Of a stretch of 45,927 nt of DNA, positions 7,288 through 43,195 are shown piece by piece. Origin of the DNA: Acidimicrobiaceae bacterium (lineage in GTDB: Bacteria > Actinomycetota > Acidimicrobiia > Acidimicrobiales > Bog-793); NCBI GenBank assembly GCA_027365385.1, contig DAHXNN010000022.1, forward strand, positions 1 to 45,927, written 5' to 3'. Position numbers and translations under genes: made by a program. Numbering within the stretch: the stretch's first letter is position 1; every line of letters begins with the position of its first letter. Under the pieces are notes generated by a model, which was not told the DNA's origin, ran no database searches, and saw only the letters and a program-made list of their open reading frames with translations.

Positions 7288-7358
7288 GTCGCCAACGCTA
7301 GTCAGCGCGGCCCGCTCTCGTTGTCGACACAGTCCAGCCCTAGGCACGAGCCGTCCCT

Positions 7359-7397
7359 CGACGCGGGCCAGCCGTCGACGCGGGCCAGCCGTCGACG
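7359..7397. repeat. 17-bp perfect tandem duplication (CGACGCGGGCCAGCCGT x2, plus partial third copy) in the AKR/kdp divergent intergenic region
   Basis: Read directly: 7359-7375 and 7376-7392 are identical, followed by CGACG. Confidence 0.9.
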
Positions 7398-7400
7398 AAC

Positions 7401-7456
7401 TGTTAACGCGACAGGACGAGCCGTTGACATCTCGTTGACGCCCCCGGCGCCAGAGT
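7401..7456 (+). promoter_or_regulatory. candidate kdp control region: helically phased YGTTRAC repeats (possible KdpE boxes) plus a -10-like CAGAGT
   Basis: TGTTAAC (7401-07), CGTTGAC (7422-28) and CGTTGAC (7433-39) have start-to-start spacings of 21 and 11 bp. CAGAGT (7451-56) ends 6 nt before ATG 7463, the geometry of a leaderless transcript. Confidence 0.35.
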
Positions 7457-7462
7457 GCAGCC

Positions 7463-7546
7463 ATGGGTGATCTGCTCGCAGTGATAGGCATCGTCGTCTT
7501 CACGGCCGCGATGCTCGGCCTCGTCTGGGCGTTGGAGCGGGTATGA
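7463..7546 (+). CDS. 27-aa hydrophobic miniprotein, KdpF-like, first cistron of the kdp operon (absent from the ORF track)
   Basis: ATG 7463 ... TGA 7544-46 encodes MGDLLAVIGIVVFTAAMLGLVWALERV, a single predicted TM helix. Its stop overlaps the kdpF ATG (ATGA 7543-46). Confidence 0.5.
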   Translation: MGDLLAVIGIVVFTAAMLGLVWALERV

Positions 7547-7632
7547 CCGCGGTCCAGGCCGTCCTGCTCGTCGTGTCCGTCGTCCTCTTCGCGTACCTCG
7601 GCGTCGCGATGTTCAAGCCGGAGTGGTTCTAG
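7543..7632 (+). CDS. kdpF: K+-transporting ATPase subunit F
   Basis: 29 aa, MTAVQAVLLVVSVVLFAYLGVAMFKPEWF. Matches the KdpF pattern (hydrophobic helix, then Y-L-x-x-A-x-x-x-P-E-x-F). The stop TAG 7630-32 abuts the kdpA ATG 7633. Not in the ORF track. Confidence 0.85.
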   Translation: MTAVQAVLLVVSVVLFAYLGVAMFKPEWF

Positions 7633-9324
7633 ATGGGCTTTCTCTGGACGATCGTCACGCTCGTCGTCGCCCTCGGCCTGACGTGGCGCTACCTCGGCTC
7701 GTACATGGCGGCAGTGTTCGACGGGCGTGTCCATTTCCTCGGCGCCGTCGAGCGCCCGCTCTACAGAGCGCTCGGCACGAGCCCCGACCGAGAGCAGACC
7801 TGGCGCCGATACGCGATCTCTGTCGTCGCCTTCTCCGGCGTCTCCTTTGCGCTCACCTACCTGCTGCTGCGGATCCAAGGATCCCTGCCGCTCAACCCGC
7901 AGCACCTCGGCGCTGTCGGTCCCGCGCTCAGCTTCAACACCGCTGCGTCGTTCCTCACGAACACGAACTGGCAGAACTACGGCGGAGAGACCACCATGTC
8001 GTACTTCTCCCAGATCGGCGCCCTCACGGTCCAGCAGTTCGTGAGCCCGGCGGTCGGGATCGTGGCTGCCATCGCGCTCGTGCGTGGATTCGCGCGCAAG
8101 GAGTCCGCGACGATCGGCAACTTCTGGGTCGACCTCGTCCGCTGCCTGTTCTACGTGCTGCTTCCCATTGCGTTCCTCGCTGGCATCGTCTTCGTCGGCC
8201 AGGGCGCAGTCCAGACGCTCGCGGGGACAGTGAGCATCCACGACGCGATGAACGGCGTCACGCAGACGATCGCGCGTGGGCCAATCGGCTTCATGGAGGC
8301 GATCAAGCAGCTCGGCACGAACGGCGGCGGCTTCCTCAACGCGAACTCCGCCACCCCGTACGAGAACCCGACCGCCCTCACGAACTGGCTATCGATCTAC
8401 CTGCTGCTCGCAATACCCTTCTCGCTCACCTACACCTTCGGCAAGTTGGTCGGCAGCGTCCGTCAGGGCCGGGCGCTCCTCGCCGCGATGGTCCTCATCT
8501 TCGGCGTCTGGGTCGGTTTTACGAGCTACTCCGAGCACCAGGGCAACCCTGCGGTCGCGGCAGCCGGCATCGTGCACCAGCCCACTGGGAACATGGTGGG
8601 CAAGGAGGTCCGCTTCGGCGACACGTCGTCCGCCTTGTTCGCGGTGGCCTCGACGCAGACCTCGACGGGCTCGGCGGACGCCTCCTACGACTCGTTCACG
8701 CCCATGGGCGGCTTCGGGCTGCTGACCGGGATGATGCTCGGGGAGGTGACGCCGGGGGGCACGGGCACCGGTCTCTACACCATGCTTATCTACGCGATCG
8801 TCGCCGTCTTCATCGGGGGCTTGATGATCGGCCGGACGCCGGAGTACCTCGGCAAGAAGATCCAGGCCAAGGAGGTGAAGCTCGCCGGTCTCGGCTCCCT
8901 CGTCATGCCGCTCGTGGTGCTCGTGCTCACGGCCATCGCCGTCTCGGTCCACGCGGGACGGATCGGGCCGCTCAACTCTGGTCCGCACGGCTTCACAGAG
9001 ATCCTCTACGCGCTGACGTCCCAGGGCAACAACAACGGATCGGCCTTCGGCGGGCTCAGCGGCAACACTCCCTTCTACAACGTCGTCGGAGCGATCGACA
9101 TGCTCATCGGCCGGTTCGGGATCATGATCCCGGCCCTCGCGCTCGGTGGGTCGCTCGCCGCGAAGAACGTCGTGCCCGAATCCCTCGGCACGTTCCGCAC
9201 GGACAACACGATGTTCGTCGGCCTCGTCATCGGCGTCATCGTCATCATCGGCGGGCTGACCTTCTTCCCCGCCATCTCCCTCGGCCCGATCGTCGAGCAG
9301 CTGGGCCACGGGAAGTTCTTCTAG
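7633..9324 (+). CDS. kdpA: K+-transporting ATPase subunit A
   Basis: 563 aa polytopic protein with KdpA selectivity-filter-like segments (NTNWQNYGGE, GTNGGGF, SGNT). Correct position in kdpFABC. Confidence 0.97.
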   Translation: MGFLWTIVTLVVALGLTWRYLGSYMAAVFDGRVHFLGAVERPLYRALGTSPDREQTWRRYAISVVAFSGVSFALTYLLLRIQGSLPLNPQHLGAVGPALSFNTAASFLTNTNWQNYGGETTMSYFSQIGALTVQQFVSPAVGIVAAIALVRGFARKESATIGNFWVDLVRCLFYVLLPIAFLAGIVFVGQGAVQTLAGTVSIHDAMNGVTQTIARGPIGFMEAIKQLGTNGGGFLNANSATPYENPTALTNWLSIYLLLAIPFSLTYTFGKLVGSVRQGRALLAAMVLIFGVWVGFTSYSEHQGNPAVAAAGIVHQPTGNMVGKEVRFGDTSSALFAVASTQTSTGSADASYDSFTPMGGFGLLTGMMLGEVTPGGTGTGLYTMLIYAIVAVFIGGLMIGRTPEYLGKKIQAKEVKLAGLGSLVMPLVVLVLTAIAVSVHAGRIGPLNSGPHGFTEILYALTSQGNNNGSAFGGLSGNTPFYNVVGAIDMLIGRFGIMIPALALGGSLAAKNVVPESLGTFRTDNTMFVGLVIGVIVIIGGLTFFPAISLGPIVEQLGHGKFF

Positions 9325-11493
9325 ATGGAGCGCACGGAAATGGACGACGCAGGACAGGTCGACGCAGGACAGGTCGACGCAGGACAGGTCGACACAGGAC
9401 AGGTCGACGCAGGACAGGTTGGGACGGCCAAGGTTGGGACGGCTCAGGTCGAGACGGCACCGAAGGCCTCCGGTCAGGGCGTCGCCCGGTCGCGCAGCCT
9501 GTTCGACCGCGAGATCCTCGCCCAGGCCCTCGGCGGGTCGGTCAGGAAGCTCGACCCCCGTGTCCAGGTGCGCAACCCGGTCATGTTCGTCGTGCTCGTC
9601 GGGACGATCGTCACCTTCGTCGAGGCGATAGCGCACCCGAGCACGTTCAGCTGGTCCATCACGATCTGGCTGTTCCTCACCGTGGTCTTCGCGAACTTCG
9701 CCGAGGCGATGGCCGAGGGCCGAGGCAAGGCTCAGGCAGACACGCTCCGCCGAATGCGCTCGGAGGCCGAGGCTCGACGACTCCGCGCCGACCGCACCGA
9801 GGAGCGGGTAGCGGCGGCGGAGCTCGCCCGGGGCGACCTCGTCGTCTGCGAGGCGGGCGATCTCGTCCCCTCCGACGGCGAGATCGTCGAAGGGATCGCG
9901 TCGGTCGACGAGTCCGCTATCACCGGCGAGTCGGCACCGGTGATCCGGGAGTCCGGCGGCGACCGCTCCGCAGTGACCGGTGGCACGAAGGTCCTCTCGG
10001 ACCGGATCGTCGTGCGCATCACGGCCGAGCGCGGCAAGACCTTCCTCGACCGGATGATCTCTCTCGTGGAGGGGGCGAACCGCCAGAAGACACCCAACGA
10101 GATCGCCCTCACGATCCTGCTCGCGGCGCTCACGATCGTGTTCCTCCCCGTCGTGGTCACGCTGCAGCCCTTCGGCCACTTCTCCGGTGCATCGGTGTCG
10201 GTCGTCGTCCTCGTCGCCCTCCTCGTCTGCCTGATCCCGACGACCATCGGCGCCCTGCTCTCCGCGATCGGCATCGCCGGAATGGACCGGCTGGTCCAGC
10301 GCAACGTGCTCGCGATGAGCGGGCGTGCAGTAGAGGCGGCGGGCGACGTCCAGACGCTCCTGCTCGACAAGACCGGCACCATCACGCTCGGCAACCGGAT
10401 GGCGGCCGCCTTCCTGCCGACGGCTGGTCACACCGAGGAGGAGCTCGCGGACGCCGCGCAGCTCGCGTCGCTCGCGGACGAGACCCCCGAAGGGCGCTCC
10501 ATCGTCGTGCTTGCGAAGCAGCGCTTCGATCTCCGGGAGCGGGAGCTGGCGCCCGACCACGAGTTCGTCCCGTTCTCGGCGAACACGCGGATGTCGGGCC
10601 TCGACATCGGAGGTCGCTCGGTCCGCAAGGGTGCTGCCGAGTCGGTGCGCCGCTGGGCTGTCGAGCAAGGAGGCACCGTCCCCGAGGGACTCGACGAAGC
10701 GGTCGGCCAGGTCGCTCGCGCCGGGTCGACGCCCCTCGTCGTCGCAGACGGTCCGACGATCCTCGGCGTCATCGAGCTGAAGGACGTGGTGAAGCAAGGT
10801 ATCAAGGAGAAATTCGCGGAGATGCGCCAGATGGGCATCCGGACGGTCATGATCACGGGCGACAACCCCCTCACCGCGGCGGCGATCGCAGAGGAGGCCG
10901 GCGTCGACGACTACCTCGCCGAGGCGACGCCCGAGACGAAGATGGAGCTCATCAAGGCCGAGCAGGAGGGCGGCAAGCTCGTCGCGATGACGGGCGACGG
11001 CACGAACGACGCGCCGGCACTCGCGCAGGCCGACGTCGGCGTCGCGATGAACACGGGGACCACGGCCGCGAAGGAGGCCGGCAACATGGTCGACCTCGAC
11101 TCGAACCCCACGAAGCTCATCGACGTCGTCGAGATCGGCAAGCAGCTCCTCATCACGAGGGGGTCGCTCACGACGTTCTCGATCGCAAACGACGTGGCGA
11201 AGTACTTCGCGATCATCCCGGCACTCTTCGTCGCTACCTACCCCCAGCTCAACACGTTGAACATCATGAAGCTCCACTCGCCACAGAGCGCCGTGCTCTC
11301 GGCGGTGATCTTCAACGCTCTCGTCATCATCGCCCTGATCCCCCTGGCGCTTCGAGGCGTGAAGTTCCGCGCGACCGGCTCGGCAGCGATACTCCGCCGC
11401 AACGTCGCCGTCTACGGCGTCGGCGGGATCGTCACGCCGTTCGTGTTCATCAAGCTCATCGACCTCGTCCTCACGGCGCTGCACGCCTACTGA
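9325..11493 (+). CDS. kdpB: K+-transporting P-type ATPase subunit B, with a repeat-containing N-terminal extension
   Basis: DKTGTIT phosphorylation site, [24 protein letters not shown] 9325 directly follows the kdpA stop. There is no alternative canonical start downstream of the repeats. Confidence 0.97.
9346..9450 (+). repeat. 15-nt in-frame tandem repeat (GACGCAGGACAGGTC x5 with 2 single mismatches, then 2 degenerate units) encoding (DAGQV)n in the KdpB N-terminus
   Basis: Read directly: units at 9346, 9361, 9376, 9391, 9406, and degenerate units at 9421 and 9436. Confidence 0.95.
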
Positions 11494-11506
11494 TGGAGAC
11501 TCTCTG

Positions 11507-12115
11507 ATGCTCACCTACCTCCGCCGATCCGTCGTCATGGCGGCGATCTCGCTCGTCGTCTTCGGCTTCCTCTACGCGCTTGCCGGCACTGGCGTCGCGC
11601 AGCTCCTCTTCCGCCACCAAGCGGACGGCTCGATCACCGCGAACGGCTCGACGCTCATCGGCCAGAGCTGGACGAGCCCGCGGTGGTTCCACGGTCGCCC
11701 CGACGACACCGGTCCCTACGCTGCGAACCCGAAGAAGGGAATCGCGGGTGGCGACAACCCGCTCCTTGCGAACGGCGTGGCCGGCGAATCAGGTGCGACG
11801 AACCTCGGTCCCCGCTCGAAGGTCCTACTCGCCGACACAAAGGCACTCGTCACCTACCGGCACCGGCTCGGCGTCGACCCGACCGAGGACCTCGTCACGA
11901 CCTCGGGAAGTGGCTACGACCCGGACATCACCCCGCTCGACGCGGTCGTGCAGATCCCGATGGTCGCGAAGGCGACAGGCATCTCGCAATCCGCGCTGCG
12001 CCACCTCGTCGCCGCCGAGACCCACGGCGCGGAGCTCGGCTTCCTCGGCAGCAGCTACGTCGACGTCCTCCAGCTCAACGAGGGGCTCGCGCGCCTCGAG
12101 CGGGCTGGGCACTGA
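11507..12115 (+). CDS. kdpC: K+-transporting ATPase subunit C
   Basis: N-terminal TM helix, then FRHQADGS...GSTLIGQSW...F.GRP and ...SGSGYDPDITP motifs typical of KdpC. Confidence 0.95.
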   Translation: MLTYLRRSVVMAAISLVVFGFLYALAGTGVAQLLFRHQADGSITANGSTLIGQSWTSPRWFHGRPDDTGPYAANPKKGIAGGDNPLLANGVAGESGATNLGPRSKVLLADTKALVTYRHRLGVDPTEDLVTTSGSGYDPDITPLDAVVQIPMVAKATGISQSALRHLVAAETHGAELGFLGSSYVDVLQLNEGLARLERAGH

Positions 12116-12128
12116 CACGGCATCGCCC

Positions 12129-12458
12129 GTGCGCCACGAGCCGCCCCCACCCGAGCCGGGGCACCGCCCGCCCTCCGCGTCGCCCGGGCCGGCCCGGGCC
12201 ACGCGGGTCGCCGACGCGATCCCCCGGCGCCCGCTCTCTGTCCACGGCGTCGTCACCGCGGTCACCGTGCGCGAGGCGACGGGACCCGTCCTCGACGCGA
12301 CCCTCGACGACGGCACGGGAGTCGTCGAGCTCACCTTCTTCGGGCGACGGTCGGTGCCCGGGATCGTGCCCGGGGCATCCGTCGCGGCCGAGGGCGTCGC
12401 GCTCCTCGCCCACGGGCACCTCACCCTGCTCAACCCCCGCTACCGGTTCACAACCTGA
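12129..12458 (+). CDS. small OB-fold (nucleic-acid-binding-type) domain protein with a Pro-rich N-terminus
   Basis: SVHGVVTAVTVREATGPVLDATLDDGTGVVELTFFGRRSVPGIVPGASVAAEGV resembles actinobacterial OB-fold proteins. GTG 12129 is the first start after the kdpC stop. The upstream part of track ORF 11580..12458 is out-of-frame overlap. Confidence 0.6.
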   Translation: MRHEPPPPEPGHRPPSASPGPARATRVADAIPRRPLSVHGVVTAVTVREATGPVLDATLDDGTGVVELTFFGRRSVPGIVPGASVAAEGVALLAHGHLTLLNPRYRFTT

Positions 12459-12532: not shown

Positions 12533-13213
12533 TCACACGGCCACGAGCTGGTAGCCGATGCCCGGGTGCGTCCGTAGCATCTCGCCGGCGGGCTCGCCGA
12601 GCTTGCGGCGCACGCGGTGGGCATAGACGCGCAGGTAGTGCGACTCCCCGCCGTACTCGGCGCCCCAGACGTCTCGCAGGATCATGTGCTGGGTGCAGAC
12701 CTTGCCGGCCCGGCGCGCCAGGTAGGCCAGGAAGTCGAACTCACGCGACGTGAGCTCGAGGTCGCGCCCGCCGACACGGCCCGCGTGGCCAACGAGATCG
12801 AGCTCGAGATCGCCCACGACGATCTCGGTGGGCTCGGCCCCGGCGACGACCCGGGAGTGGCGGAGCGCGACCCGAAGGCGAGCCTCGAGCTCGGCCATGC
12901 CGAACGGCTTCGTCACGTAGTCGTCGGCACCGCCGTCGAGGGCTGCGACCTTACGCTGCTCGTCGCCCGACGCGGAGAGCACGACGATCGGCACCGACGA
13001 CCATTCGCGCACCCGGCGGCACACCTGCGTACCGTCGAGGTCCGGCAGACCCAGGTCGAGAAGGACGACGTCGGGAGAGACGAGCGCCACCTGGCTGATG
13101 CCGTCCTCGGCGGTGCGGGCGACGACCACGTCGTACCCCCGCGCCGACAGCCCGATGCGCAGCGCCTTGCACAGCGACAGGTCGTCGTCGACCACGAGCA
13201 CCCGCGCCGTCAC
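12533..13213 (-). CDS. kdpE: OmpR-family response regulator KdpE
   Basis: Receiver domain (VLVVDDD ... LLDLGLPDLDG ... KP) plus winged-helix output (LTSREFDFLAYLARRAGKV...LRVYAHRVRRKL). GTG 13213 overlaps the kinase stop (GTGA). Confidence 0.92.
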   Translation of the reverse strand: MTARVLVVDDDLSLCKALRIGLSARGYDVVVARTAEDGISQVALVSPDVVLLDLGLPDLDGTQVCRRVREWSSVPIVVLSASGDEQRKVAALDGGADDYVTKPFGMAELEARLRVALRHSRVVAGAEPTEIVVGDLELDLVGHAGRVGGRDLELTSREFDFLAYLARRAGKVCTQHMILRDVWGAEYGGESHYLRVYAHRVRRKLGEPAGEMLRTHPGIGYQLVAV

Positions 13214-14736
13214 GGCACCTCCGCGTGGCGACGGGCGCGCGGAAGCGTGAACGCGAACCGAGCACCACCGCCGCGACGCTCGGCCGCGGTGATCGTCCCG
13301 CCGTGAGCCTCGACGAAGGCCTTTGCGATCGTCAGACCGAGCCCTGCCCGCCCTCCACCCGCTCCGTTGCGGCTGAACATTGCGAAGACGCGCTCGCGAT
13401 CGCCCTCGGCGACGCCTGGGCCGCGGTCCTCGACGGCGACCTCGACCGCGCCGCCAGCGGCGCGGGCGGAGAGCTCGACCGCTGTCCCGTCCGGCGCATA
13501 GCGGCCCGCGTTCTCGATGAGGTTGACGAGCACCTGGACGGCGAGAAGGTGGTCGACCCAGACGGCGGGCAAGGTGAGGGGGAAGGAGGTCGAGACGCGA
13601 CCCGGCCATCCCGGGCCGAGCACGACGAGCGCCTCGGAAAGCAGCTCCTCTACGGTCGTCTCCCCGAGGTCGAGCCGGAGCGCTCCGGCCTCGATCTGCG
13701 CCATGCCGAGGAGGTTCGCGACGAGCCTCTCGAGCCGGTCCGCCTGCGCCTCGACCAGACCGAGCAGCTCCTGCTCGTCCTCGCGGCACAAGGAGACGTC
13801 GTCGCTGCGCAGATCCGACACGGCCGCCTTCACCGTGGCGAGCGGCGTGCGCAGGTCGTGCGAGACCGCACCGAGCATCGCCCGACGCCACCGATCCGCC
13901 TGCTCGAGGCGCTCGCTGCGCTCGGCCCGGCTGCGGAGCTGCTCCCGTTCGATCGCGAGCGCCGCGTGGTTCGCGAAGGTGCGCAGAAGCTCGAGCCCGT
14001 GCGCGCCCGGCACCACGCCGGCGACGGCCAGGATCCCGACGGGGCGACCCGCGACGCCGAGAGCCAGAGCGACCGTGCCGTCGGCGCCGGACGGTGGGAC
14101 GGCTCGGCTACGGACCTCACCGCCCGAGGGAGACACGGCGCTGAGCTCGTCGCCACGAAGCGGCGCTCCGGCCCACGCCGCGACGTCGAGACCAGCTGCC
14201 GAGGGCGGCTCGCGACCGGCCAGCCCGCTCCTGTCGTCGGAGGAGGCCGGGAGGAGCAGGGCAACCGAGCGGAGATCGAAGACCTCGTGGACCGTCGTGA
14301 CGACGAGGTCGAGCAGCTCGGCGAGTGGCGTCTCACCGATGAGCACGTCGGAGAGCTCGAGCAAGGTACGCGCGTCGTCCTCCCGGTGGCGCGCCTCCGC
14401 GCGCGCGGCTGCGAGGCGCGCCACGATACGGGCGACGACGAGCAGGACGGCGACGTAGACCCCGAGCGCCACCCAGTTCTCGCCGGCACCGACCGACAAG
14501 GTCCCGTAGGGAGGGATGAAGAGCAGGTCGTAGACGAGGAAGCCGACCGAGACAGCGAGCACCCCTGCCGCGAAGCCCCCCGTCGCGACAGCGAGCACGA
14601 CGGGCACCACGAGGACGAGAGCAGCCGTCGCGACACCGACGTGCGAGCGGAGCGGCATCATGACGGCGCTCACCACTGCGTCCCCGGCGACCGCCGTAAG
14701 CGCCCCGAGAACAAAACGTCTCGATTGTCCACTCAC
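13210..14736 (-). CDS. kdpD: KdpD C-terminal half: 4-TM (DUF4118-type) + GAF + HisKA + HATPase sensor kinase
   Basis: Four N-terminal TM helices, H-box AMLGAVSHDLRTPLA, N-box NLIENAGRYAP, DRGPGV, GLGLTIAKAFVEAHGG. A strong SD (GGAGAGGAG) lies 7 nt upstream of GTG 14736. It lacks the KdpD-N/Usp domains. Confidence 0.9.
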   Translation of the reverse strand: MSGQSRRFVLGALTAVAGDAVVSAVMMPLRSHVGVATAALVLVVPVVLAVATGGFAAGVLAVSVGFLVYDLLFIPPYGTLSVGAGENWVALGVYVAVLLVVARIVARLAAARAEARHREDDARTLLELSDVLIGETPLAELLDLVVTTVHEVFDLRSVALLLPASSDDRSGLAGREPPSAAGLDVAAWAGAPLRGDELSAVSPSGGEVRSRAVPPSGADGTVALALGVAGRPVGILAVAGVVPGAHGLELLRTFANHAALAIEREQLRSRAERSERLEQADRWRRAMLGAVSHDLRTPLATVKAAVSDLRSDDVSLCREDEQELLGLVEAQADRLERLVANLLGMAQIEAGALRLDLGETTVEELLSEALVVLGPGWPGRVSTSFPLTLPAVWVDHLLAVQVLVNLIENAGRYAPDGTAVELSARAAGGAVEVAVEDRGPGVAEGDRERVFAMFSRNGAGGGRAGLGLTIAKAFVEAHGGTITAAERRGGGARFAFTLPRARRHAEVP

Positions 14737-14783
14737 GGCGCGCTCCTCTCCCCCAGGCTAGCGGTGCGGGAGGTCCGGGGGGC

Positions 14784-14853
14784 GCTCGACGCTCGACGCT
14801 CGACGCTCGACGCTCGACGCTCGACGCTCGACGCTCGACGCTCGACGCTCGAC
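14784..14853. repeat. perfect heptanucleotide tandem array (GCTCGAC)x10 in the divergent intergenic region between the two KdpD halves
   Basis: Counted unit by unit from 14784 to 14853: ten identical copies with no interruption. Confidence 0.97.
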
Positions 14854-14865
14854 AACAATGGCGGC

Positions 14866-16035
14866 ATGCACGATGCGATGTACGCGCCGGACGACGAGCA
14901 GGTCAACCCGACCGGGAGGTTCCGCATCTACCTCGGCGCGGTCGCAGGTGTCGGCAAGACGTGCGCGATGCTCGACGAGGGGTGGCGCCGGCACGAGCGG
15001 GGCGGAGACGTGGTCGTCGGGTTCGTGGAGACCCACGGCCGGGCGCACACCGTCGAGCAGCTGCGCGACCTCGAGGTGGTACCGAGAAAGCACGCCGGGC
15101 ACAGGGGCGCTGACTTCGAGGAGATGGACCTCGATGCCATCCTCGAGCGCCGACCGGAGATCGTCCTCGTCGACGAGCTCGCCCACACGAACGTGCCGGG
15201 CTCTGGACGCCACGAGAAGCGCTGGGAGGACGTCGTCGAGATCCTGGACGCCGGCATCGCGGTGGTGAGCACTGTCAACGTCCAGCACCTCGAGAGCATC
15301 GCCGACGCGGTCGAGCAGATCACCGGCGTCGCGGTCCGTGAACGCGTCCCGGACTGGGTCGTCCGCCGGGCAGACCAGCTCGAGCTCATCGACTCGTCGC
15401 CCCAACAGCTGCGCCGGCGCATGATGCACGGCAACGTCTACCCACCGGACAAGGTGGAGGGCGCGCTCGCCGGCTTCTTCCGCACCGAGAACCTCGTGGC
15501 GCTACGCGAGCTCGCGCTCCGCTTCGTGGCCGACGAGACCGAGGAGGAGCTGCTCGCCTACCTCGAGAGCCATCACCAGACGGCCGTCTGGGACACGAGC
15601 GAGCGCATCCTGGTCGCGGTCACCGGGGCACCGGGGACACCGGGCGTCGTCCGGCGCGCAGCGCGGATCGCTGCTCGCGTGAAAGCAGAGCTCCACGTCG
15701 TCCACGTCGTCACGGACGCCACGAGCTCCGGGGCGAGGCACACGATCGACGAGGTCCACCAGCTCGCGGACGACGTCGGAGCGACATGGCACGACGTCTC
15801 CGGGGACGACCCCGCTCGCACACTCGTGAGCTTCGCCTCAGAGCACCAGATCACCCAGATCGTGCTCGGCTCGAGCCGCCGGGGGCGCTTCGAGGAGCTG
15901 ACGCGCGGATCCGTCGTGAGCCGCGTGCTCCGCTTCGCCGCCGAGGAGGGCGTCGACGTGCACGTCATCGCCCGCCGGGATCACTCTGAGCAGCGGGATC
16001 ACTCTGAGTCGGCCGGGGCCGCCGAGATCACCTGA
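14866..16035 (+). CDS. KdpD N-terminal half as a stand-alone protein: KdpD-N (Walker-A-like) domain + Usp domain
   Basis: RIYLGAVAGVGKTCAML, VDELAHTN, VSTVNVQHLES, SPQQLRRRMMHGNVY (KdpD-N), then the Usp-like ILVAVTGAPG...ELHVVHV...IVLGSSRRGRF. It ends with its own stop. AACAAT (14854-59) lies 6 nt before ATG 14866. Confidence 0.88.
   Translation: MHDAMYAPDDEQVNPTGRFRIYLGAVAGVGKTCAMLDEGWRRHERGGDVVVGFVETHGRAHTVEQLRDLEVVPRKHAGHRGADFEEMDLDAILERRPEIVLVDELAHTNVPGSGRHEKRWEDVVEILDAGIAVVSTVNVQHLESIADAVEQITGVAVRERVPDWVVRRADQLELIDSSPQQLRRRMMHGNVYPPDKVEGALAGFFRTENLVALRELALRFVADETEEELLAYLESHHQTAVWDTSERILVAVTGAPGTPGVVRRAARIAARVKAELHVVHVVTDATSSGARHTIDEVHQLADDVGATWHDVSGDDPARTLVSFASEHQITQIVLGSSRRGRFEELTRGSVVSRVLRFAAEEGVDVHVIARRDHSEQRDHSESAGAAEIT
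15976..16011 (+). repeat. 18-nt in-frame tandem duplication (CGGGATCACTCTGAG+3 nt, x2) encoding RDHSEQ/RDHSES at the C-terminus of the KdpD-N protein
   Basis: Read directly: 15976-15993 and 15994-16011 differ only in the last 3 nt. Confidence 0.9.
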
Positions 16036-16074: not shown

Positions 16075-16923
16075 CTACCACGACGCAGTGGCCCGGGCCG
16101 AGTACCGGCCAGATGAGCGCTCCACGCGGACCGCGAGACCGAAGCACGCGCTGAGCGGCGCGTCCGCGAGGACCTCCCCTGCGGGGCCAGACGCGACGAC
16201 CCGACCTTCACGGAGCAGCAGCGCATGGCTCGTCGCGGCCGGAAGCTCCTCGAGCGTGTGAACGACCTGCACGACCGCGGGCGCATCGTCTCGCGCGGCC
16301 AGGGTGTCGAGGGCGTCGACGAGGGCCTCGCGCCCGGGCAGGTCGACCCCTGCAGCCGGCTCGTCGAGGAGGAGGAGGCCGTGCCGGCCGAACAACGAGC
16401 GCGCGAGCAGCACGCGCTGCCGTTCGCCCTGCGAGCAGCTCTCGAAGGCCTGGTCGGACACGTGCCCACAGTGGAAGCGCTCGAGCAGCTCACCGGCCTC
16501 GCGGAGCTCGGCGGAATCGAAGCTCGCCCACCAGGGAGCAAGGATGCCGTCCCTCCCGGTGAGCACGATCTCACGGGCGGTCACGTGCCCGGGGAGGCGA
16601 CCGGCGACGCTCTGGCCGACGACACCGATCCTCGTGCGCAGCGCCCGGAGATCCGTGCGGCCGAGACGCTCGCCGAGCACTGTGGCCTCACCTGCGCTCG
16701 GGTGGCGCACCGCCCCGATCAGCGAGAGCAGCGTCGTCTTCCCGGCACCGTTGGGCCCGAGAAGGGCCCAGTGCTCACCGCCGCCCACCGAGAGCGTCAC
16801 GGGCCCGACGAGGCGCCTCGCCGCTGCCTCGACGGTCACCCCGGAGAGCTCTACGACGACCGCGCTCACCTCAGGTGGCCACCCGGCGCACGGCCACCCG
16901 GCGCACGGCCACCGGGTGGCCAC
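16075..16923 (-). CDS. ABC transporter ATP-binding protein (single NBD, YlmA/ModF-like), no permease gene adjacent
   Basis: Walker A GPNGAGKTTL, signature SQGERQRV, Walker B LLLLDEP. Alternative start GTG 16869 (VSAVVVELSGV...) would exclude the WPCAG-WPCAG repeat. Confidence 0.88.
   Translation of the reverse strand: MATRWPCAGWPCAGWPPEVSAVVVELSGVTVEAAARRLVGPVTLSVGGGEHWALLGPNGAGKTTLLSLIGAVRHPSAGEATVLGERLGRTDLRALRTRIGVVGQSVAGRLPGHVTAREIVLTGRDGILAPWWASFDSAELREAGELLERFHCGHVSDQAFESCSQGERQRVLLARSLFGRHGLLLLDEPAAGVDLPGREALVDALDTLAARDDAPAVVQVVHTLEELPAATSHALLLREGRVVASGPAGEVLADAPLSACFGLAVRVERSSGRYSARATASW
16877..16906. repeat. 15-bp perfect tandem duplication (GGCCACCCGGCGCAC x2), followed by a third partial copy and GGTGGCC/GGCCACC palindromic arms
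   Basis: Read directly. Located between the yceI stop and the conserved start of the ABC ATPase. Confidence 0.9.
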
Positions 16924-26939: not shown

Positions 26940-28181
26940 GTGAGCTTCGTCGAAGGTCTGCGTTGCCGTGAGTGTGGCCGCGTCTATCCCGCCGCCGCAT
27001 CCCATGTGTGCGACTTCTGCTTCGGTCCCCTCGAGGTCGCCTACGACTACGAGGCAGTCGCGGCGAGCATCTCCCGGGAGAAGATCGCGGCGGGGCCGGC
27101 GACGATCTGGCGCTACGCGGACCTGCTCCCAGCGTCGGCCGAGTCCCCCGTCGAGCTCGGTGCGGGCTTCACGCCCCTCGTGCGGGCCGATCGCCTCGCT
27201 GCCGAGCTCGGCCTCGGTGAGCTCTACGTGAAGAACGACACCCGCAACCCGACAGGGTCGTTCAAGGACCGCGTCGTGTCCGTGGCCCTCACCAAGGCGC
27301 GCGAGCTCGGCTTCAAGATCGCCGCCTGCGCCTCCACCGGCAACCTCGCGAACTCCGTGGCGGCCCACGCGGCGCGCGCTGGCATGCAGTCCTACGTCTT
27401 CGTGCCGAAGGACCTCGAGCGCGTGAAGATCCAGACGACCGCTGTGTTCGGAGGCAACCTCATCGCCGTCGACGGCAACTACGACGACGTCAACCGCCTT
27501 TGCGCCGAGCTCGCCAGCGAGCACACGGACTGGGCGTTCGTCAACGTCAACGTCCGCCCCTACTACTCGGAGGGCTCGAAGACCCTCGCTTTCGAGGTCG
27601 CCGAACAGCTCGGATGGACAGTGCCGGACCACGTCGTGGTGCCGATCGCCTCCGGCAGCCAGCTCACCAAGATCCACAAAGGCTTCCACGAGCTCGGGCT
27701 CGTGGGCCTCGCAGACGGCGGCGACGGCGTGCGGATCTCCGGCGCGCAGACGGCTGGCTGCTCGCCGGTCGCGACGGCCTTCGCAGAAGGCTCCGACGTC
27801 GTGCGGCCCGTGCGCCCGGACACGATCGCGAAGTCGCTCGCGATCGGCAATCCTGCCGACGGCTACTACGCGCTCGGCGTGGTCCGCTCGAGCGGGGGCG
27901 CCATCGCCTCGGTGACCGACGACGAGATCGTCGAAGGCATGAGGCTGCTCGCCCGCACCGAAGGGATCTTCGCCGAGACCGCCGGCGGGGTGACGATCGC
28001 GACGCTCGCGAAGCTCGCCGCCGCCGGGATCGTCCGGCGCGACGAGCGCGTGGTCGCCTACGTCACCGGCACCGGGCTGAAGACCGTCGAGGCGCTCGGC
28101 GACACCGTCGGGCCGTCAGCTGTCATCGAGCCGACGCTCGAGGCATTCGCAGCGATCCAACAGGAAGGACTCATGAGATGA
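26940..28181 (+). CDS. threonine-synthase-family PLP enzyme with an N-terminal CxxC...CxxC zinc ribbon (candidate sulfur-carrier-dependent homocysteine synthase)
   Basis: LRCRECG...VCDFC ribbon, PLP-lysine motif NPTGSFKDR, ASTGN, fold-type-II body. GTG 26940 has the best SD; ATG 26880 and ATG 26922 are alternatives. Confidence 0.88.
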   Translation: MSFVEGLRCRECGRVYPAAASHVCDFCFGPLEVAYDYEAVAASISREKIAAGPATIWRYADLLPASAESPVELGAGFTPLVRADRLAAELGLGELYVKNDTRNPTGSFKDRVVSVALTKARELGFKIAACASTGNLANSVAAHAARAGMQSYVFVPKDLERVKIQTTAVFGGNLIAVDGNYDDVNRLCAELASEHTDWAFVNVNVRPYYSEGSKTLAFEVAEQLGWTVPDHVVVPIASGSQLTKIHKGFHELGLVGLADGGDGVRISGAQTAGCSPVATAFAEGSDVVRPVRPDTIAKSLAIGNPADGYYALGVVRSSGGAIASVTDDEIVEGMRLLARTEGIFAETAGGVTIATLAKLAAAGIVRRDERVVAYVTGTGLKTVEALGDTVGPSAVIEPTLEAFAAIQQEGLMR

Positions 28182-31487: not shown

Positions 31488-31493
31488 GCGCCC

Positions 31494-31528
31494 GGGCGTC
31501 GGGCGTCGGGCGTCGGGCGTCGGGCGGC
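31494..31528. repeat. heptanucleotide tandem array (GGGCGTC)x4 plus one imperfect unit (GGGCGGC), immediately upstream of the chdC promoter -10
   Basis: Counted directly. The array ends 3 nt before TACACT (31532-37), which ends 6 nt before GTG 31544. Confidence 0.95.
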
Positions 31529-39381: not shown

Positions 39382-40185
39382 TCAGCGGGAAGAGTCGCGC
39401 ACCCTCGAGACGGCGAAGCACGCCACGGCGGCCGCTGCCGCGACGTTGAGCGATGCCAGTGGACCGGCGAGCGGCACGCGCGCGAGCACGTCGCAGCGGT
39501 CGCGAGTGAGCCGGCCGAGGCCCTTGCCCTCCGCACCGAGGACGAGAGCGAGAGGCTCGGTAGCGAGGTCCAGGTCGTGGACGACACGAGCGCCCTGCTC
39601 GTCCAGCCCGACCGACCAGACACCCTCGCGTCTGAGCAGATCGAGTGCCGCGCCGACGCCGGGCACGAGTGCGATCGGGAGGTGCTCGACGGCACCGGCC
39701 GCTGCCTTCGCGACCGTCGCGGTGACGTGCGCGGAGCGGTGCCTCGGAAGGACCGCCCCCGTCGCCCCGGCGCACAGAGCGGTGCGCAAGATCGCTCCGA
39801 GGTTGTGCGGATCGGTCACCCCGTCGAGCACGACGAGGAAGGGCGCAGGAGCACGTGGGATCGACGGACGCCGTGCGAGCACCTCGAGGTCGGCGGCCTG
39901 GAGCGGCTCTGCCACGGCGAGCACGCCCTGGGGGACCTCGCTCGACGAGCGTGCAGCCAGCTGGTGGGCGCCGACGAGACGTACAGGCACACCGGCAGCC
40001 CGGGCAAGCTCGACGATCTCGTCGAGCACGGCGGACGGGTCCCTGCCGTCGGCGACGAGCACCTCGCGCACGCGGCGGCGGCCCGCGAGGAGCAGCTCGC
40101 GCACCGCCTGACGCCCCTCCACCTGGGCGCCGCCGAGGTCGCCGTCGTCGTTGCGGCGCTGGCGCTGGCGCTGGCGCTGGGTCAC
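39382..40185 (-). CDS. rlmB: 23S rRNA (guanosine-2'-O-)-methyltransferase RlmB (SpoU/TrmH family)
   Basis: VEGRQAVRELL, VLDGVTDPHNLGAILRTA, LVLGAEGKGL and SLNVAAAAAV SpoU motifs. GTG 40185 lies 10 nt after the ispF stop. The longer track ORF overlaps ispF. Confidence 0.88.
   Translation of the reverse strand: MTQRQRQRQRRNDDGDLGGAQVEGRQAVRELLLAGRRRVREVLVADGRDPSAVLDEIVELARAAGVPVRLVGAHQLAARSSSEVPQGVLAVAEPLQAADLEVLARRPSIPRAPAPFLVVLDGVTDPHNLGAILRTALCAGATGAVLPRHRSAHVTATVAKAAAGAVEHLPIALVPGVGAALDLLRREGVWSVGLDEQGARVVHDLDLATEPLALVLGAEGKGLGRLTRDRCDVLARVPLAGPLASLNVAAAAAVACFAVSRVRDSSR
40155..40178. repeat. hexanucleotide array (GGCGCT)x4 on the + strand, encoding (QR)n in the RlmB N-terminus
   Basis: Read directly. 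The protein reads VTQRQRQRQRRND. Confidence 0.9.
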
Positions 40186-42118: not shown

Positions 42119-43195
42119 TCAGCTGTAGCGGTCGAGGATGCTCGTCTCGGCGAGCCTCGCGATGCCGTCCTTCACGAGACGAGCCTGGTCGAGGTCGATG
42201 CCACCTGCATCTGCGAGCTCGCCCGCGGATGCCCTGACGAGCCCGTAGAGGTCGCCGAAGTGCTCGACGAGTCGGGCAGCCGTCGTGCTCGACAGCTGCG
42301 GGACCCTCTTCAACAGGCGAAGGCCACGCGGCACGAGAGAGTCGCCGAGGCTCGGGGGGCTCACCCCCGGCATCGCGAAGACCTCGACGACCCGCTCGAG
42401 CCCGAGCAGGTCTCCCGTCGCCAACCTGGACAGGCCTGCGATCGCGTCGTCGCAGCACGCTCCGCCGAGCGCACCGCGATAGTCGTCCGCGACGAGGATG
42501 AGCTCGTCGCCGACACCGAGCATGAGCTCGGACAGCTGGAGGCGGAGCAGCCTGCCGTGACCGCCGAGCTCGTCGAGAAGCTCGGCGATCTCCGCCCCGA
42601 CGCGCACGACCATCTCGGCGCGCTGCAGGACCGCCGCCACGTCGCGGACTGTGACGACGTCCTCGATCTCCGAGGTGGTGAGCGCGGACGTGACCTCGTC
42701 GAGCCGGACGCGGAAGCGGTCGAGTGTCTGGAGCAGGTGGTTCGCACGGCCGACGATCATGTCCGTGGACCGCAGCTGCCGCTTGACGTCGCCGCGGTAG
42801 AGGGTGATCGTCCCCATCTCCTCGGAGACCGCGACGACCTGGACGGCCACGCAGCGTGCGACGCGCTCAGCAGTGCGGTGACGCGTCCCTGTCTCGGTCG
42901 TCCGGGCGGCGGGGTCCGGCACAAGATGGACGTTCGCCCAGGCGATGCGCTCCCCGGCGCGGTCGAGGACGATGGCACCGTCCATCTTCGCGAGCTCGGA
43001 GAGGCGTTGCGGGCTCATCTCCGCGTCGATGTGGAAACCCCCCGAGCAGATCTCGAGGACATCGGGCCCGTCGCCGAGGACGATGAGCGCGCCCATGTGC
43101 GCCCGCAGGATCCTGTCGAGCCCGTCGCGAAGTGCCGTCCCGGGGACCACGTGAGCGAGCAGCTCGCCGAGCGATGCATCGTCCGGCTGGCTCAC
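42119..43195 (-). CDS. disA: DNA integrity scanning protein DisA (diadenylate cyclase)
   Basis: GALIVLG, DGAIVLD and GTRHRTAER DAC-domain motifs plus a C-terminal HhH domain. Immediately downstream of radA. Confidence 0.95.
   Translation of the reverse strand: MSQPDDASLGELLAHVVPGTALRDGLDRILRAHMGALIVLGDGPDVLEICSGGFHIDAEMSPQRLSELAKMDGAIVLDRAGERIAWANVHLVPDPAARTTETGTRHRTAERVARCVAVQVVAVSEEMGTITLYRGDVKRQLRSTDMIVGRANHLLQTLDRFRVRLDEVTSALTTSEIEDVVTVRDVAAVLQRAEMVVRVGAEIAELLDELGGHGRLLRLQLSELMLGVGDELILVADDYRGALGGACCDDAIAGLSRLATGDLLGLERVVEVFAMPGVSPPSLGDSLVPRGLRLLKRVPQLSSTTAARLVEHFGDLYGLVRASAGELADAGGIDLDQARLVKDGIARLAETSILDRYS

Follow-up and report, generated by a model that had tools for sequence, protein, structure and literature searches.

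The locus described here is a kdp locus for K+ uptake from an Acidimicrobiaceae bacterium (GenBank assembly GCA_027365385.1). The window, meaning the whole stretch of DNA that was analyzed, comprises positions 1 to 45,927 of contig DAHXNN010000022.1 and has a G+C content of 72%. Its gene map was drawn from coding-potential analysis and profile searches (Table 1). The locus is composed of the pump genes kdpFABC, a response regulator gene of the kdpE type, and a KdpD that is divided between two divergently transcribed genes. One gene encodes a membrane histidine kinase (the kinase half), and the other encodes a soluble protein with a KdpD domain and a Usp domain (the N-half). The analysis establishes how the genes are built and which domains they encode, as well as the catalytic motifs, the serine target, selection against amino acid change, and the synteny shared with relatives. 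The two genes are likely to form a functional two-gene KdpD of the published class "KdpD/Usp + TM/GAF/DHpCA" (TM, transmembrane), conserved across the Acidimicrobiales.

Structure of the two KdpD genes

The kinase half is made up of the Pfam domains DUF4118 (the 4-TM domain), GAF (a weak match at 20 bits), HisKA, and HATPase_c. Its H-box is SHDLRTPL, and the histidine is H293. Against the NCBIfam KdpD model the protein spans positions 396-883, and its counterpart in Escherichia coli KdpD is residues 399-881, with 30% identity in the alignment. A Shine-Dalgarno-like sequence, GAGAGGAG, is located ~8 nt 5' of the GTG start codon. An earlier note, made from the sequence alone, had assigned to this gene its own Shine-Dalgarno sequence and only the 4-TM, GAF, HisKA, and HATPase modules, and the upstream sequence and the Pfam matches agree with it.

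The N-half is composed of the Pfam KdpD domain (PF02702, 307 bits) and a Usp domain, and it ends at its own stop codon, as that note had also read from the GVGKT motif and the frame. It covers positions 20-381 of the same NCBIfam model and is the counterpart of E. coli KdpD residues 23-349, with 45% identity in the alignment. The solved KdpD N-domain in PDB entry 2R8R matches it with E=3e-62. The Walker A motif is GAVAGVGKT (G24-x5-G30K31T32), the Walker B motif is D103E104, and R185 is the equivalent of E. coli Arg190. A look-up of the exact 389-aa protein returned no record.

The break point of KdpD lies between the Usp domain and TM1, as given by the Pfam, NCBIfam, and E. coli alignment coordinates of both halves. 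The same three sources bear out the claim that KdpD is split at a domain boundary into two divergent genes. The genes are separated by 129 bp, and their products add up to 897 aa (508+389), close to the one canonical KdpD that had been predicted (894 aa in E. coli).

The N-half frame remains open for 1.6 kb upstream of the ATG, to position 13225. The resulting 936-aa open reading frame (ORF; 13225-16035) runs antisense to the kinase gene and is an artefact of high G+C. Some database proteins are over-extended, e.g., P0246 and P0252 (~525 aa), where the match begins near residue 150. These calls probably come from the same upstream-open frame.

The neighboring genes supply the partners of a Kdp system. 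In KdpB, E202/S203 correspond to E. coli E161/S162, and the 19-residue context of its TGES motif is identical to that of E. coli. The best NCBIfam match of the kdpE-type product is the KdpE model at 193 bits, under the model's cutoff of 325. The first 4 bases of kdpE are shared with the end of the kinase gene, and the two genes are co-linear in most related loci that show both.

Table 1. Coordinates of the genes and sequence features discussed in the text (TRF, Tandem Repeats Finder)
Feature	Position	Strand	Description
GTTGAC-N5-GTTGAC direct repeat	7423-7439	+	11-bp period; upstream of kdp operon; candidate KdpE box
Hydrophobic small ORF	7463-7546	+	27 aa
kdpF	7543-7632	+	NCBIfam above cutoff
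kdpA	7633-9324	+	Pfam
kdpB	9325-11493	+	Pfam; NCBIfam above cutoff; TGES S203 = E. coli S162
kdpC	11507-12115	+	Pfam
Small OB-fold ORF	12129-12458	+	109 aa; weak tRNA_anti-codon/RecG-wedge similarity; directly 3' of kdpC
kdpE-type OmpR-family response regulator	12533-13213	-	Pfam Response_reg + Trans_reg_C
KdpD kinase half	13210-14736	-	508 aa, GTG start; DUF4118 4 TM, GAF, HisKA H293, HATPase_c
Divergent intergenic region	14737-14865		129 bp; back-to-back -10-like boxes (sequence reading)
Heptanucleotide tandem repeat (CGCTCGA) x10.1	14783-14853		Perfect; TRF score 142, 100% matches
KdpD soluble N-half	14866-16035	+	389 aa, ATG start, own stop; KdpD domain + Usp; putative atypical serine kinase
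DisA diadenylate cyclase (c-di-AMP synthase)	42119-43195	-	Pfam DAC + DisA-linker; adjoins radA

Conservation and origin of the split

The split KdpD is conserved across the order Acidimicrobiales. The top 120 database matches of the N-half are all 371-438 aa long and contain KdpD and Usp only; those named by taxon are mostly metagenome-assembled genomes (MAGs) of Acidimicrobiales. Likewise, the top 120 matches of the kinase half all stand alone, at 470-548 aa. The stand-alone forms are kept across the order down to ~57% identity for the N-half and ~40% for the kinase half.

For gene order, 80 genome loci encoding an N-half relative were retrieved from Acidimicrobiales and other Actinomycetota MAGs. 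The N module stands alone in 79 of them, where it ends no more than 85 residues past the end of the match, and is fused only in L080. The commonest layout (27/80) is the head-to-head adjacency of the kinase gene and the N gene. Both the split and the divergent layout, for which a comparison with relatives had been proposed, are therefore found beyond this genome. The kinase gene is located elsewhere in the same locus in 16 loci, and in two the kinase gene precedes the N gene on the same strand. In a further 34 loci, no kinase gene is present in the retrieved stretch; both short contigs and paralogues are among them.

Five loci from Actinomycetota MAGs (L036, L041, L064, L066, and L069) encode two divergent N-module paralogues, with no kdp genes within 10 kb. 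The neighbors of orphan paralogues were scanned for hints of other targets, and nothing conserved turned up beyond a second divergent paralogue in five loci. Tandem (KdpD-N/Usp)x2 proteins of ~750 aa also exist, e.g., in Gloeobacter kilaueensis, and P0241 is listed with the N-module paralogues.

In a neighbor-joining tree of the N module, calculated without support values, the N-half belongs to a short-form clade. The sister group is an 89-leaf, mostly full-length clade that includes the Rhodococcus KdpD, and the short forms of Deinococcus and cyanobacteria are far away. This topology suggests that the fission in Acidimicrobiales was independent of those short forms.

Layouts were also mapped on a tree of the 80 loci. 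A core in which kdpE and the kinase gene point away from the N gene is shared by the earliest-branching split lineages (L032, L034, L035, and L037) and found throughout the large clade of the window, while the position of kdpABC shifts around it. In another clade, the N gene is last, after kdpC. A tandem pair of separate genes, with the N gene ahead of the kinase gene, was found in none of the 80 loci. Head-to-head is probably the ancestral layout. It had been proposed that this arrangement requires an inversion whose breakpoints coincide with the domain boundary; such an inversion is a plausible and parsimonious origin, only as an ancient event. Because the core layout is both basal and clade-wide, it would be neither recent nor particular to this genome.

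This class of architecture was already described in 2024 and is not a new kind of system. The published survey assigned 140 of 5495 species to it, mostly from Acidobacteriota and Chloroflexota, with 10 among 1511 Actinomycetota (PMC11018627). Acidimicrobium ferrooxidans was catalogued there as "KdpD/Usp only", and the N-terminus of its protein closely resembles the N-half. The only gene orders given were those of Deinococcus radiodurans, Anabaena, and Alicyclobacillus, in which the serine kinase chain comes after the pump genes; orientation was not described (PMC11018627). The locus in the window shares with the published class the same two polypeptides, domain content, and break point, as well as KdpE, KdpFABC, and an encoded diadenylate cyclase. 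It differs in that the split extends across the order Acidimicrobiales and most often places the N gene and the kinase gene head-to-head.

Single-chain KdpD proteins, such as those of E. coli (b0695) and Rhodococcus pyridinivorans, have all of the domains and catalytic residues that are present here, and the N part of the R. pyridinivorans protein is 53% identical to the N-half. In contrast, the two genes of the window are on opposite strands and their products have no covalent link. Direct control of the N domain by the TM/GAF K+ sensor is therefore not possible. The short KdpD proteins of Deinococcus and cyanobacteria resemble the N-half in having KdpD and Usp only, in size (~340-390 aa), and in being encoded at a kdp locus. 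They are distant in the tree and only 42-44% identical to it, and the N-half falls under the cutoff of the model for the cyanobacterial type. Moreover, in D. radiodurans and Picosynechococcus (as a "universal stress protein") the gene is located after kdpC, whereas here it is head-to-head with the kinase gene.

Proposed function of the separated halves

Inhibition of the pump at high K+ has been traced to the KdpD domain, an atypical serine kinase (ASK) whose substrate is Ser162 of KdpB (Silberberg et al. 2024, PMC11018627). The fragment KdpD(1-230) suffices for phosphorylation of S162, and activity requires Walker A, the Walker B residues D109/E110, and W39/R190 (PMC11018627). Three sequence features of an ASK are found at the locus: a Walker A of the form G-X5-GKT, a Walker B D-E pair, and a KdpB TGES serine preceded by Glu. 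Of the adenine-coordinating Trp39/Arg190 pair, Arg190 is matched by R185, whereas Trp39 is replaced by Cys33. The features of the split class are likewise present, namely a KdpD-N/Usp chain, a separate TM/GAF/DHp/CA chain, a cognate KdpE, and KdpFABC.

In the preferred reading, the membrane kinase half would detect K+ via its TM/GAF region and, through KdpE, turn on transcription of kdpFABC (7543-12115) at low K+. The soluble N-half would be an atypical Walker A/B serine kinase. By phosphorylating S203 in the TGES motif of KdpB, it would stop the pump when K+ is sufficient. The Usp domain of the N-half would serve as the regulatory input, and c-di-AMP (cyclic di-AMP) made by DisA is one candidate signal. 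The N-half may also touch the kinase half, or the complex of KdpE with DNA, in trans. Back-to-back promoters would allow the amount of each half to be set independently. The earlier note had proposed action in trans on the kinase or on KdpFABC, and by analogy this matches published work on both kinds of target (PMC11018627, PMC2714519).

Several points weigh against this reading. The serine kinase activity, its target, and its input signal are carried over from published experiments with the E. coli and Deinococcus proteins. The view is that of the window, and a second full-length kdpD could be located elsewhere in the genome. The adenine-stacking Trp39 of E. coli is Cys33 in the N-half. This position varies among the 120 N-half relatives (F 74, C 31, W 10, V 5) and is Tyr in the Pseudomonas syringae structure 2R8R. 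The N-half scores 379 bits on NCBIfam NF038185 (KdpD_non_kinase, the cyanobacterial type), under the cutoff of 550. A scan of 14500-15100 for sigma-70 consensus promoters and terminators found nothing. Finally, the c-di-AMP motif of Staphylococcus aureus KdpD, SXS-X20-FTAXY, is absent from the Usp domain of the N-half when the two proteins are aligned.

The chief alternative denies the N-half a kinase role and regards it as a detached input domain that tunes the kinase/phosphatase balance of KdpD. It would rejoin the membrane kinase half, or KdpE on DNA, non-covalently, and a canonical KdpD would be rebuilt. Published work on E. coli speaks for it: the N- and C-terminal cytoplasmic domains of KdpD interact, and separated KdpD/1-395 stabilizes KdpE~P on DNA (PMC2714519). 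Divergent adjacency as the commonest layout also suggests co-regulation of the two halves. However, the equivalents of E. coli G30, G36, K37, T38, D109, E110, and R190, a set that includes R185 and the residues of Walker A and Walker B, do not vary among 120/120 N-half relatives, as expected of a catalytic site. The clade with the N gene after kdpC places it far from the kinase gene, like Deinococcus and cyanobacteria, and the published ASK activity sits in the KdpD-N domain alone. The alternative is unlikely as a replacement for the serine kinase, and the two roles are not mutually exclusive.

It is very improbable that one half or both became decaying pseudogenes through a disruptive rearrangement. 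No evidence in support of decay was found. The ratio of nonsynonymous to synonymous substitution rates (dN/dS) is 0.09 (versus L001) and 0.19 (versus L002) for the kinase half, and 0.13 and 0.15, respectively, for the N-half. All catalytic motifs are intact, and both stand-alone forms are conserved across the order. Pseudogene decay is ruled out by these ratios and by the conservation, and the suggestion that the N-half might be decaying in relatives does not hold.

An assembly error, in which a single kdpD was wrongly inverted or joined at 14737-14865, can practically be dismissed. The junction does hold a 71-bp perfect repeat, inside which one related short-read contig (L086) stops, but 27 independent assemblies show the same divergent layout, some of them on contigs of 0.57-3.7 Mb (L004, L005, L007, L020, and L077) and some in relatives without a repeat at the junction. 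Each gene has a start, a stop, and upstream signals of its own, and L080 is the only relative with a fused gene. Misassembly, against which the earlier note had cautioned, is thus ruled out by conserved synteny.

Within the serine kinase reading, the signal received by the Usp domain can be considered further. The Usp domain of S. aureus KdpD binds c-di-AMP through the motif named above (Moscoso et al. 2016, PMC4686210). The S. aureus protein and the N-half both have Usp in the KdpD N-terminal region and both belong to organisms equipped to make c-di-AMP; they differ in the motif. At that position the N-half has AVTGAPGTPGVVRRAARIAARVKAELHVVHV (TGA...(x20)...LHVVH), a sequence similar to those of E. 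coli, Rhodococcus, and D. radiodurans. The family consensus is vTgApGt...DLhaVHV, and the region is of the E. coli-like RXXXR-X8-[WL]H[AV]V[YH] type. The short KdpD of Deinococcus geothermalis phosphorylates KdpB and is stimulated by c-di-AMP (PMC11018627). With the D. radiodurans protein taken as a proxy for it, the S. aureus motif is missing there too, so its absence from the N-half is not decisive. Of the earlier suggestion of a c-di-AMP input, the DisA gene stands, and the S. aureus precedent lacks its motif here. Judged by sequence, such an input is a tentative hypothesis, possible and rather doubtful. In a scan at Rfam gathering thresholds, no riboswitch for c-di-AMP or any other ligand was found at the kdp locus. 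The only match was an S-adenosylmethionine (SAM) riboswitch (RF00162, 26808-26928, 47.9 bits), upstream of a gene for a pyridoxal phosphate-dependent enzyme (27006-28181).

Intergenic sequences, neighboring genes, and significance

The region between the two KdpD genes contains a candidate promoter box for each. On the - strand, TAGCCT (14755-14760) precedes the GTG start of the kinase gene by 18 nt. On the + strand, AACAAT (14854-14859) is 6 nt before the ATG of the N-half, a spacing that suggests the geometry of a leaderless actinobacterial transcript. In L002, L004-L007, L009, and L063, boxes of the [CG]A[CG]AAT type recur 5-7 nt ahead of the start codon, and TAGNNT boxes recur before the kinase gene in relatives. 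Since the sigma-70 scan found nothing, these candidate assignments are a reading of motifs and not a result.

Between the two boxes is the (CGCTCGA) tandem repeat, which takes up 71 of the 129 intergenic bases. Among relatives with 95-98% protein identity (L001, L087, and L086), L001 and L087 have ~6 degenerate units and L086 has at least 3.5, where its contig ends. L002 has no such repeat. The tract is a labile variable-number tandem repeat and not a conserved element. Other alleles of this intergenic region with its repeat were sought in metagenomes, with 0 matches. The idea that the head-to-head pair is a tunable "divergon", in which repeat length changes the spacing and phasing of the promoters, is a long shot. 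If true, repeat length would shift the ratio of brake (the serine kinase half) to activator (the histidine kinase half), and soil populations of Acidimicrobiales would hold heritable, reversible variation in the set point of K+ uptake. Other perfect short tandem repeats are found at gene 5' ends or between genes at 16877-16913, 31493-31526, and 40155-40180, and slippage-prone repeats seem to be common in this genome.

Upstream of the kdp operon, the GTTGAC-N5-GTTGAC direct repeat is a candidate KdpE binding site. It is the only exact match in the window and is ~24 nt before the first ORF of the operon. Similar repeats at the same distance are present in L002 (x3, overlapping), L015, and L027, 3 of 39 loci overall. 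In 21 relatives, the sequence between the kinase gene and the N gene lacks the motif, and there is therefore no sign of autoregulation via it. A perfect 17-bp x2.4 direct repeat, TCGACGCGGGCCAGCCG, is located upstream of the kdp promoter region at 7358-7397.

Three further observations concern the operon itself. The 27-aa ORF (MGDLLAVIGIVVFTAAMLGLVWALERV) has a stop that overlaps the start of kdpF (ATGA); it is conserved in L002 and matches no family. KdpB has a 57-residue N-terminal extension (9325-9495) with no counterpart in the KdpB model. The extension holds (DAGQV)n, encoded by a 15-bp x5 tandem repeat (9345-9419), and the true kdpB start codon may be downstream of 9325. Homologues of the OB-fold ORF follow kdpC in L002, L022, L027, L042, and L061, and it may be an unrecognized member of the kdp operon. 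A homologue search with this ORF returned one near-identical match only.

What is added to the published class is that the split is order-wide in Acidimicrobiales, is probably independent of the Deinococcus and cyanobacterial short forms, and is most often head-to-head. The NCBI pipeline names the two halves "universal stress protein" and "ATP-binding protein", which hides the split, and the annotation is corrected here. Acidimicrobiales are largely known from MAGs; cultured members include Ferrimicrobium acidiphilum (L078) and Acidimicrobium ferrooxidans. The locus is a natural experiment in which control of kdp transcription by a histidine kinase and inhibition of KdpB by a serine kinase would be placed on separate proteins. 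The gene-order variants of the order offer a way to ask how a soluble serine kinase would sense K+ without the TM/GAF sensor.

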